A DNA stretch of 64,000 nucleotides from a virus, in the IMG/VR virus record IMGVR_UViG_3300042691_050360, positions 102,523 through 166,522 of that record; one strand, 5' to 3'. Shown here piece by piece: positions 933-1,703 of the stretch (position 1 is its first letter; each line of letters starts with the position of its first letter). The notes under the pieces were generated by a model. That model was not told where the DNA came from. It saw only the letters and a list, made by a program, of their open reading frames with translations, and made no database searches. Made by a program: the position numbers and the translations under genes.

Positions 933-1009
933 TGGTGGAGCCGACGGGGTTCGAACCCGCAAGACTTCTGATTGCAAATCAGACGCTTTCCCAAATAAGC
1001 TTCGGCCCC
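933..1009 (-). tRNA. tRNA-Ala(UGC)
   Basis: Acceptor GGGGCCG/CGGCTCC with G3:U70; anticodon arm TCTGA-TT TGC AA-TCAGA; T-loop TTCGAAC; A73 and encoded CCA. Confidence 0.95.
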
Positions 1010-1015
1010 GAAAAC

Positions 1016-1092
1016 TGGTCAGTTAGGTGAGATTTGAACTCACACACCTTTGAGTCACAATCAAAGGGCTCTACCATTTAAGCTACTAACTT
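1016..1092 (-). tRNA. tRNA-His(GUG), atypical
   Basis: Anticodon arm TTTGA-TT GTG AC-TCAAA; T-arm GTGAG-TTCAAAT-CTCAC; CCA end. A1:G72 mismatch, A73 and no encoded G-1. Confidence 0.85.
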
Positions 1093-1095
1093 GTG

Positions 1096-1172
1096 TGGTG
1101 TCGTGTGAAAGACTCGAACTTTCAAATTTCAGGTTCTCAACCTGTTGCCTCTACCAATTTGGCTAACACGAC
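1096..1172 (-). tRNA. tRNA-Leu(GAG) with a short variable loop
   Basis: Acceptor GTCGTGT/ACACGAC; 3-bp D-stem GCC/GGC; anticodon CAGG-TT GAG AA-CCTG; T-arm GAAAG-TTCGAGT-CTTTC; A73-CCA. Confidence 0.9.
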
Positions 1173-1175
1173 GTT

Positions 1176-1255
1176 TGGTACCAGCGGCGAGATTCGAACT
1201 CGCAAAAGCTACGGTTCTAAACCGTATTGTTGTACCATTCACTTGCCACGCTGGT
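1176..1255 (-). tRNA. tRNA-Leu(UAG) with a short variable loop and a weak D-arm
   Basis: Acceptor ACCAGCG/CGCTGGT; anticodon arm TACGG-TT TAG AA-CCGTA; T-arm GCGAG-TTCGAAT-CTCGC; A73-CCA. Confidence 0.85.
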
Positions 1256-1263
1256 AGAAATCT

Positions 1264-1348
1264 TGGTGGAGACAGTAGGACTCGAACCTACGAACCGATT
1301 AAAGCACTGGGTTACAGCCAGTTGTAATTGCCGCTATACGATGTCTCC
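1264..1348 (-). tRNA. tRNA-Tyr(GUA)
   Basis: Acceptor GGAGACA/TGTCTCC; anticodon arm ACTGG-CT GTA AC-CCAGT; long variable region; T-loop TTCGAGT; A73-CCA. Confidence 0.95.
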
Positions 1349-1357
1349 AGAAAAACT

Positions 1358-1436
1358 TGGTCTGCGTGACAAGATTCGAACTTGTGTGCTTGACCTCCCA
1401 AGGGCCACGAGGTAGACCAGACTCCTCAACACGCAG
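1358..1436 (-). tRNA. tRNA-Pro(UGG)
   Basis: Acceptor CTGCGTG/CACGCAG with C1:G72 and A73; anticodon arm TGGCC-CT TGG GA-GGTCA; T-loop TTCGAAT; CCA. Confidence 0.95.
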
Positions 1437-1445
1437 ATAAATTTT

Positions 1446-1526
1446 TGGCTGGATGAAGGTCGTCCTTAGTCATCCACTTACGGGTCACCACTTTGGAGAG
1501 TTTGATTTCAACCCTGGCACCACCCC
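1446..1526 (-). ncRNA. unclassified GC-rich structured element ending in GCCA (possible degenerate tRNA or tRNA-like RNA)
   Basis: Occupies the first slot of the tRNA array and ends ...TCATCCA-G-CCA. It has hairpins TGGATG/CATCCA and AGGGTT/AACTCT but no TTCRA T-loop. Confidence 0.3.
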
Positions 1527-1549
1527 GATATTTAATTGTCAATGTTCGT

Positions 1550-1590
1550 AAAAGAAAAACCCCCGAAAGATTTTAGTCCTTCGGGGGTTT
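1550..1590 (-). terminator. intrinsic terminator (attenuator 3:4 hairpin) upstream of the tRNA array
   Basis: 14-bp stem AAACCCCCGAAGGA/TCTTTCGGGGGTTT with one G:U pair, a 6-nt loop, and a TTTTTCTTTT tract. Confidence 0.9.
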
Positions 1591-1616
1591 GCAGCTTGTC
1601 GATACGCAACGAGCCA

Positions 1617-1670
1617 CTACCCCGAAGAGGGGGCGAGTGCTGGATATAGATGGCTGAGCGTATTGATCAT
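1617..1670 (-). CDS. attenuator leader peptide MINTLSHLYPALAPSSG (17 aa)
   Basis: ATG ATC AAT ACG CTC AGC CAT CTA TAT CCA GCA CTC GCC CCC TCT TCG GGG TAG. An AGGA SD lies 8 nt upstream. Codons 7-12 match the six downstream tRNAs, and the 3' end is complementary to the terminator 5' arm. Confidence 0.85.
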   Translation of the reverse strand: MINTLSHLYPALAPSSG

Positions 1671-1703
1671 TTTTGTGTTCCTAAATTGTTTTACAAGAGT
1701 TAA

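Follow-up and report, generated by a model that had tools for sequence, protein, structure and literature searches.

What controls the tRNA genes that a virus carries? Phage tRNA genes are common, and to our knowledge the control of their expression is largely unknown. Leader-peptide attenuation is the textbook mechanism for amino-acid and synthetase operons, and a literature search found no description of it for tRNA genes. The locus described here raises the question of whether a phage uses it in that way, as a short reading frame, a terminator and structures that compete with the terminator stand in front of six tRNA genes. We think it quite probable that the locus is a ribosome-mediated leader-peptide transcription attenuator, and that what it senses is the decoding done by the tRNAs of the array itself. 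The evidence is entirely in silico: we can observe how the sequence is arranged, how stable its structures are, what is conserved and which codons match the tRNAs.

The window, by which we mean the whole 64-kb stretch of DNA analysed, is the last part of a 166.5-kb IMG/VR virus record that is 46% complete by CheckV and has about 38% GC. A related IMG/VR record (G001) is 347 kb long and 99% complete, which makes the source virus a jumbo phage. Its relatives are known from freshwater metagenomes. Every feature of the attenuator unit and the tRNA array lies on the minus strand, in the order promoter motif, Shine-Dalgarno sequence (SD), open reading frame (ORF), alternating C and G runs, U-tract and tRNAs. 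A paralogous unit 2 lies on the same strand 2.1 kb further, just outside the window, and precedes a second tRNA array. The features of unit 1 and its surroundings are these:

1688-1695, minus strand: promoter-like -10 motif TGTAAAAC, of YGTAWAA type; promoter function inferred
1678-1682, minus strand: Shine-Dalgarno AGGAA, 7 nt before the leader ATG; read directly
1617-1670, minus strand: leader ORF, 17 codons plus TAG (ATG at 1670, TAG at 1619-1617)
1635-1652, minus strand: sensor codons 7-12, CAT CTA TAT CCA GCA CTC, each matching one of the six downstream tRNAs
1629-1639, minus strand: segment 1, with its conserved core the C-run 1634-1629 (codons 13-14) and, at 1639-1636, the outer part given in the preliminary description
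1607-1628, minus strand: segment 2, the 5' strand of the antiterminator, with the G-run 1623-1620 and the stop codon 1619-1617
1591-1617, minus strand: apical hairpin of the antiterminator, which may also persist beside the terminator
1577-1590, minus strand: segment 3, the terminator 5' arm, of which 1586-1578 pairs with segment 2
1550-1570, minus strand: segment 4, the terminator 3' arm (1570-1557) plus the U-tract (1559-1550)
1529-1542, minus strand: conserved 14-nt box TTGACAATTAAATA between the terminator and the first RNA gene; exact copies only at the record's two units
1447-1528, minus strand: conserved element of about 82 nt that separates the box from tRNA-Pro; five lineages have it and three do not
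933-1436, minus strand: array 1, proposed to be regulated, with tRNAs Pro-TGG, Tyr-GTA, Leu-TAG, Leu-GAG, His-GTG and Ala-TGC (ARAGORN and Rfam)

The homologs were found with a pattern built from the parts common to the two paralogs and the relatives of the 307-aa protein encoded next to unit 1. This pattern matched one IMG/VR genome (the 347-kb record) and 13 metagenome loci, and every one of these 14 related loci has unit 1, unit 2 or both. The resulting set holds 9 distinct unit-1 and 10 distinct unit-2 sequences (19 in all). Relatives of the 307-aa neighbour occur at 90-95% and at 42% identity, and their contigs carry units. Other searches were unproductive. A DNA search of the INPHARED phages gave generic tRNA matches only and no relative, and IMG/VR scans gave no match either with the peptides of the 307-aa and 687-aa neighbours or with two strict DNA patterns derived solely from this phage. 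The relatives of a dCMP deaminase (80 loci, L005-L084) were set aside, being unrelated phages without the unit.

Two neighbours of the units deserve mention in their own right. Distant relatives have a PF00545 (barnase/RNase N1-T1 type) ribonuclease gene directly upstream of the 307-aa homolog and the tRNA units (L089:4559-4981, with equivalents in L090-L097), which might have some relation to RNA turnover in infection. Close relatives have an IS605 OrfB/TnpB (Cas12f-like) gene about 4 kb from the units (L085:1-1122 and L086:1-1122).

Anatomy of the leader

A YGTAWAA-type motif lies 25-30 nt before each leader ATG in the homologs. Across the whole record this motif is sharply peaked 14 nt upstream of the ATG in 11 genes. 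There it starts exactly 14 nt before the start codon with no SD between (for example at 2667-2674 of the window), and this spacing indicates that leaderless mRNAs are predicted to be widespread in this phage. Because the motif of the units sits 25-30 nt before the ATG, their transcripts would start at the SD, and for unit 1 we predict a start near 1681, as far as promoter function can be inferred. Such a start leaves the SD at the extreme 5' end of the transcript, which we count against the attenuator model. The SD itself is well conserved, with AGGAA or GGAA at equal spacing in all 19 distinct homologs.

The reading frame has 17 codons in all nine distinct unit-1 variants. All variation at codons 5, 10, 11, 13 and 15 is synonymous, codons 6, 8 and 12 interchange among Leu, Ser, Arg, Pro and Tyr, and the peptide is conserved at 11 of its 17 positions. 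Unit 1 remains 80-84% identical where the flanking 307-aa-type protein is down to 42%. ORF length, SD, stop codon and pairings are kept in close relatives, in the 13 metagenome loci and in the 347-kb genome. In unit 2 the ORFs differ by whole codons and the stop alternates between TAG and TAA. The synonymous-only codons, these in-frame indels and the exchange of stop codons argue that the leader ORFs are translated and that the tRNA family reading each position would be what selection keeps, although this is a deduction from sequence comparison.

Competing RNA structures and the position of the ribosome

The terminator (3:4) at 1590-1557 that had been described before is real: it has 14 bp, a 6-nt loop and a stability of -22.8 kcal/mol, and the U-tract follows it. 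The pairing of segments 2 and 3 was also correctly identified. Positions 1627-1620 pair with 1586-1579 in a perfect helix of 8 bp (-12.4 kcal/mol alone), but this helix forms merely the outer part of an antiterminator that extends over 1628-1578, has 19 bp and -24.8 kcal/mol and is stacked on the hairpin 1617-1591. At -24.8 against -22.8 kcal/mol the antiterminator is as strong as the terminator, and it sequesters 9 of the 14 nt of the terminator 5' arm, so the two structures are mutually exclusive. Its stability is unusual (z = -3.6): when the upstream strand was shuffled 2000 times with its dinucleotides preserved, just 3-4 of the shuffles were as stable. The leader region as a whole folds with z = -3.67. 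The number of sequestered arm nucleotides does not discriminate, since 13-34% of the shuffles reach it; only the energy does.

The first rival explanation is that we are looking at a plain intrinsic terminator of the upstream 307-aa gene, that the tRNAs are separately promoted and that neither the small ORF nor the alternative pairings are functional. The position of the terminator suits this. The 307-aa gene is on the same strand with its stop at 1737 and the terminator lies 147 nt further on, and in roughly one shuffle in three the upstream G-rich segment also finds a partner in the C-rich arm. What it does not account for is that every homolog has a promoter motif and an SD after the end of the gene and before the ORF, and that the frame, length and stop of the ORF are conserved with synonymous-only changes. 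We return to it below with the tRNA genes.

The pairing of segments 1 and 2 needs more revision. It had been drawn across the leader stop as 1639-1636/1618-1615 plus 1633-1630/1623-1620, and such a structure is indeed present (8 bp, a 2x1 internal loop, -10.4 kcal/mol, with the TAG inside), but its outer CACT/AGTG half is not conserved and is broken in 6 of the 9 homologs. The conserved core is the C-run/G-run hairpin 1634-1629/1623-1619, which RNAalifold finds in all nine sequences, as it does the hairpin and the terminator. For the untranslated RNA of this phage a far longer 1:2 structure is favoured, 1669-1648 and 1634-1630 with 1623-1597, at -22.6 kcal/mol. The four alternating C and G runs are conserved in the 9 unit-1 and 10 unit-2 distinct homologs despite the genome being only about 38% GC.

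Loss of the 2:3 pairing in homologs had been named beforehand as something that would refute the attenuator. The pairing passes this test, as 7 of its 8 pairs are kept in every homolog (one pair is lost in 6 of the 9 sequences). The unit-1 antiterminator has 95.9% of cells paired across the nine sequences, about 96%, compared with 30-53% for slid controls, and the apical hairpin has 100%, with three one-sided changes. Covariation had been suggested as a further check, and here the pairing proves conserved but there are no compensatory double substitutions in the unit-1 antiterminator, including 2:3, among the nine sequences. Covariation therefore has no power in this case and neither supports nor tests the pairing. 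The support for the predicted antiterminator is from energy, conservation and the comparison of paralogs, not from covariation. For the terminator RNAalifold reports one compensatory pair among the homologs (C-G to A-U).

All 19 variants fold into one shared three-tier antiterminator. Unit 2 is the weaker case: the antiterminator of this phage's unit 2, projected on its relatives, has only 64% of cells paired because another register is used there, and the relatives' own unit-2 antiterminator is no more stable than shuffles (z = -0.7). As a separate observation, two relatives (L087:3296-3323 and L088, corresponding to 1587-1560 of the window) carry the inside of the terminator hairpin as the exact reverse complement of the sequence found here; the inversion retains the stem and alters one base of the 2:3 helix.

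Where the ribosome would have to be for each structure was examined by constrained folding. The RNA was cut just before the terminator 3' arm and no pairing was allowed under a footprint from -18 to +12 nt of the A site, a size drawn from general knowledge of bacterial ribosomes. With the footprint on codons 7-11 (CAT to GCA) the antiterminator is the minimum free energy (MFE) structure, at -25.9 to -25.4 kcal/mol. On codon 12 it is partly retained (-20.0 kcal/mol). On the TAG, which falls within segment 2, it is lost (-3.2 kcal/mol) and only the terminator is able to form. In this phage stalls at codons 2-11 leave the antiterminator intact and positions from codon 14 to the stop abolish it, while in all nine unit-1 variants sequestration of the arm holds for stalls at codons 2-10, declines over codons 11-13 and is absent from codon 14 onwards, the stop included.

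The preliminary description had proposed that a ribosome stalled on CAT to GCA would mask segment 1 and free segment 2. In the folds such a ribosome does give the antiterminator, but stalls at the first two sensor codons do not cover the segment 1 proposed there and act instead by disrupting the long 1:2 structure. That a ribosome reaching the TAG covers segment 2 and allows termination is borne out by the fold with the footprint on the stop. The third proposal was that 1:2 and 3:4 form together without translation. A series of untranslated RNAs of increasing length moves from 1:2 to 2:3 to 1:2 plus terminator in all unit-1 variants tested, so the final MFE state is the one proposed (-45.4 kcal/mol), but the antiterminator is favoured on the way over a window of about 16 nt, by no more than 4.8 kcal/mol, and the outcome is a kinetic one. 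Since the series ends in 1:2 plus terminator, termination by default without translation is plausible in this model, provided that the -22.6 kcal/mol 1:2 structure is not displaced in time. Constrained folding thus reproduces each of the three predicted outcomes. The original observation is confirmed and its interpretation is supported, with a longer antiterminator, only the core of 1:2 and no evidence from covariation.

The mechanism we propose would run as follows. A phage promoter would start a short transcript at the SD (the host and the transcribing polymerase are unknown), and a ribosome would translate the 17-codon leader as RNA polymerase approaches the terminator. Slow decoding anywhere in codons 5-12 would have the ribosome keep the leader coding region off segment 2, which would then be free to form the 19-bp antiterminator with the terminator 5' arm, and polymerase would read into the tRNA genes. 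With fast decoding the ribosome would arrive at the TAG and cover segment 2, the terminator would form and transcription would stop. Untranslated RNA would fold into 1:2 first and probably terminate too. The net effect would be negative feedback, or demand control, in which the capacity to decode its own codons governs the tRNA set. Leader translation, stalling, the coupling of polymerase and ribosome, the response of read-through to charged tRNA and the regulatory outcome are all inferred here. One further point counts against the model: each tRNA is sampled by one or two codons only, and one slow codon might hardly stall the ribosome if its tRNA is not in very short supply.

Leader codons, tRNA arrays and what lies between them

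In addition to the six sensor codons, codon 5 of leader 1 (CTC, 1658-1656) is read by array 1, which makes seven leader 1 codons read by array 1; three are read by array 2. Leader 2 has one codon read by array 1 and twelve read by array 2. A run of six distinct tRNAs like that of leader 1 is found in none of 200,000 windows of the phage's own genes, and of the 1092 small ORFs of the record only one reaches it, leader 1 itself. The same holds for runs as long as either leader's: 0 of 200,000 gene windows, and among the 1092 small ORFs only the leaders.

Unit 2 has the same parts, namely the same SD, a 20-codon ORF, the C/G/C/G runs and an identical box, followed by array 2. Segment 2 and the terminator align between the units, the reading frame across segment 2 differs, and the apical hairpin differs in sequence. 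The peptide of leader 2 is unrelated to that of leader 1 and contains GCFMWS, corresponding to the Gly-TCC, Cys, Phe, Met, Trp and Ser-TGA tRNAs of array 2. Its run is 11 matched codons, or 6 without an insert-bearing tRNA of uncertain anticodon.

Two tRNAs of array 2 have anticodon-loop inserts of 17 and 24 nt (L003:2323-2414 and L003:1102-1199, minus strand, just before the window) and are missed by ARAGORN at default settings. The inserts are too short for group I introns. In relatives the ortholog of the first (L003:2323-2414) is a normal tRNA-Gly(TCC) without insert. Assignment of an insert-bearing tRNA as Gln-TTG or Lys-TTT was not retained, as the anticodon is not fixed.

In the relatives the match is not strict, which counts against the model. 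Their array 1 consists of Pro, Tyr, Leu-TAG, His and Ala and their leaders are LLHSYPAYAP or close variants. Under strict wobble rules all five tRNAs are sampled in two lineages; in a third this is true only if the U34 Leu tRNA reads the entire codon box. Lineages without tRNA-Leu(GAG) still have CTC or CTT, and leader position 6 has Arg or Ser codons. Since CTC persists without the GAG tRNA, the match is at the level of the tRNA family and not of the exact codon. Array 2 of the relatives has eleven tRNAs, ten of which have a codon in leader 2. This phage has no tRNA-Ile(GAT), and its leader 2 alone has no ATT, a codon present in all relatives. Leader 2 never samples tRNA-Ala(CGC) and does not always sample tRNA-Val(TAC).

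Behind a constant leader the tRNA genes themselves change. In phages with an identical leader 1 the tRNA genes of array 1 are non-orthologous, 56-70% identical except for Tyr, and are reordered, with the same six anticodons. Array 1 (933-1436 of the window) may be compared with L085:6237-6778 and L087:3460-3998, whose neighbouring proteins are 92-95% identical; its two Leu tRNAs are 77-80 nt long here and 83-85 nt in those contigs. The comparison suggests that tRNA genes may be swapped frequently while the anticodon set stays constant.

The stretch from the terminator to the tRNAs contains no YGTAWAA motif, which leaves read-through as the sole visible route of tRNA expression, insofar as promoters can be judged by this motif. 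Other tRNAs of the 347-kb relative have the motif directly upstream, without a leader ORF. The separate promoter that a plain terminator would need could be sought in the box, where TTGACA resembles a -35 hexamer. We rejected this candidate because no -10 element follows at the right spacing and because the box lies downstream of the promoter motif in a relative. In that complete genome (G001) a CGTATAAT motif is followed by a near-identical box and, 2 nt after the box, by a tRNA, and because of this order of motif, box and tRNA we read TTGACAATTAAATA as a putative element of the pre-tRNA 5' leader, not a promoter. With this, with a codon run unmatched in the gene windows and with the whole design duplicated before array 2 with a different peptide, we think it very unlikely that the terminator merely ends the 307-aa gene.

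The element of about 82 nt at 1447-1528 has no Rfam and no ARAGORN match. Its start resembles the 5' end of an intron-bearing tRNA in the related genome. At L113:215-515 of the 347-kb genome a tRNA-like gene is broken by about 240 nt, possibly a group I intron; ahead of the gene stand a CGTATAAT motif and a close variant of the TTGACAATTAAATA box.

A second rival is that the leader ORFs encode functional micropeptides, or that the terminated RNA is a stable sRNA, and that regulation of the tRNAs is incidental. Conservation of the unit-1 peptide at 11 of 17 positions could be read this way, and there is precedent in Sinorhizobium, where both the RNA released by termination at an attenuator and the leader peptide are reported to be capable of acting in trans (PMC7298713, PMC7968998). 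We find it even harder to accept. The paralogs share their RNA parts but have unrelated peptides, each rich in the amino acids of its own array, and the variable positions exchange among the array amino acids Leu, Pro and Tyr. Even if it were correct it would not rule out attenuation.

It is hardly credible that the codon string pairs with the anticodons directly and without translation, as in a T-box: six consecutive triplets are complementary to six anticodons and the T-boxes share the sensing of tRNA status and the choice between terminator and antiterminator, but a T-box binds one uncharged tRNA directly with no ribosome, comparison of 1500-1720 with Rfam at E up to 10 gives neither a T-box nor any other riboswitch, there is no Stem I-like platform near the triplets, and the conserved SD, ATG and in-frame stop, the in-frame indels and the synonymous drift at third positions all indicate translation.

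Comparison with known attenuators and possible function

Most likely, then, the phage unit works like the trp-, his- and ilv-type attenuators but regulates tRNA genes. The trpL, hisL, leuL and pheL leaders of E. coli and Salmonella are the classical leader-peptide attenuators of amino-acid operons. The phage unit shares with them a short SD-led ORF with regulatory codons and four segments that can pair as 1:2, 2:3 and 3:4, although only the core of its 1:2 is conserved. The stop codon is again located where a ribosome that has completed the leader would block the antiterminator, an intrinsic terminator follows some 65 nt past the stop, and termination is the plausible default without translation. 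It differs in being phage-encoded, in regulating tRNAs instead of biosynthetic enzymes, in having one codon per tRNA for six tRNAs instead of a run of a single codon, and in its signal, which is the decoding capacity that comes from the operon's own RNA products. The best Rfam match, RF00514 His_leader at 1551-1649, aligns the stem-loop and the terminator but scores 30.3 bits against a gathering threshold of 49 and so is below threshold. The phage leader has no run of His codons, and we take this as resemblance in shape and not as membership.

The leaders of ilvGMEDA (Ile/Val/Leu) and thr (Thr/Ile) are multivalent attenuators in which each codon is repeated and amino-acid supply is sensed. They share with the phage unit the interleaved codons of several amino acids, so that shortage of any one relieves termination; the phage leader, in contrast, has five or six specificities once or twice each, mirroring the downstream anticodons. 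The pheM leader attenuator controls pheST, the phenylalanyl-tRNA synthetase, and is comparable as leader-peptide attenuation of a component of the translation apparatus responsive to charged tRNA. Its target is a synthetase protein, it senses a single amino acid, it is cellular and no tRNA gene is controlled.

A phage sensor that responds when decoding by any one of several tRNAs fails could also serve as a counter-defence, an idea that we offer only tentatively and would not bet on. Host tRNA cleavage or loss, through anticodon nucleases or induced by phage or stress, would stall ribosomes on the leader and turn on the replacement tRNAs, which would go off again after decoding recovers. If this were true, the exchange of tRNA genes behind a constant leader would be an arms race over tRNA sequence in which the anticodon set is fixed.

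If the attenuator reading itself is true, the unit would offer synthetic biology a small natural device for sensing tRNA availability, and the mirroring of array anticodons by leader codons would be a rule for annotating unusual phage tRNAs and for finding units in other genomes. It would give a direct and testable link among phage tRNA repertoires, codon usage and host defences that target tRNA. It would mean that a virus measures the decoding capacity of the cell codon by codon and tunes its own tRNA supply.
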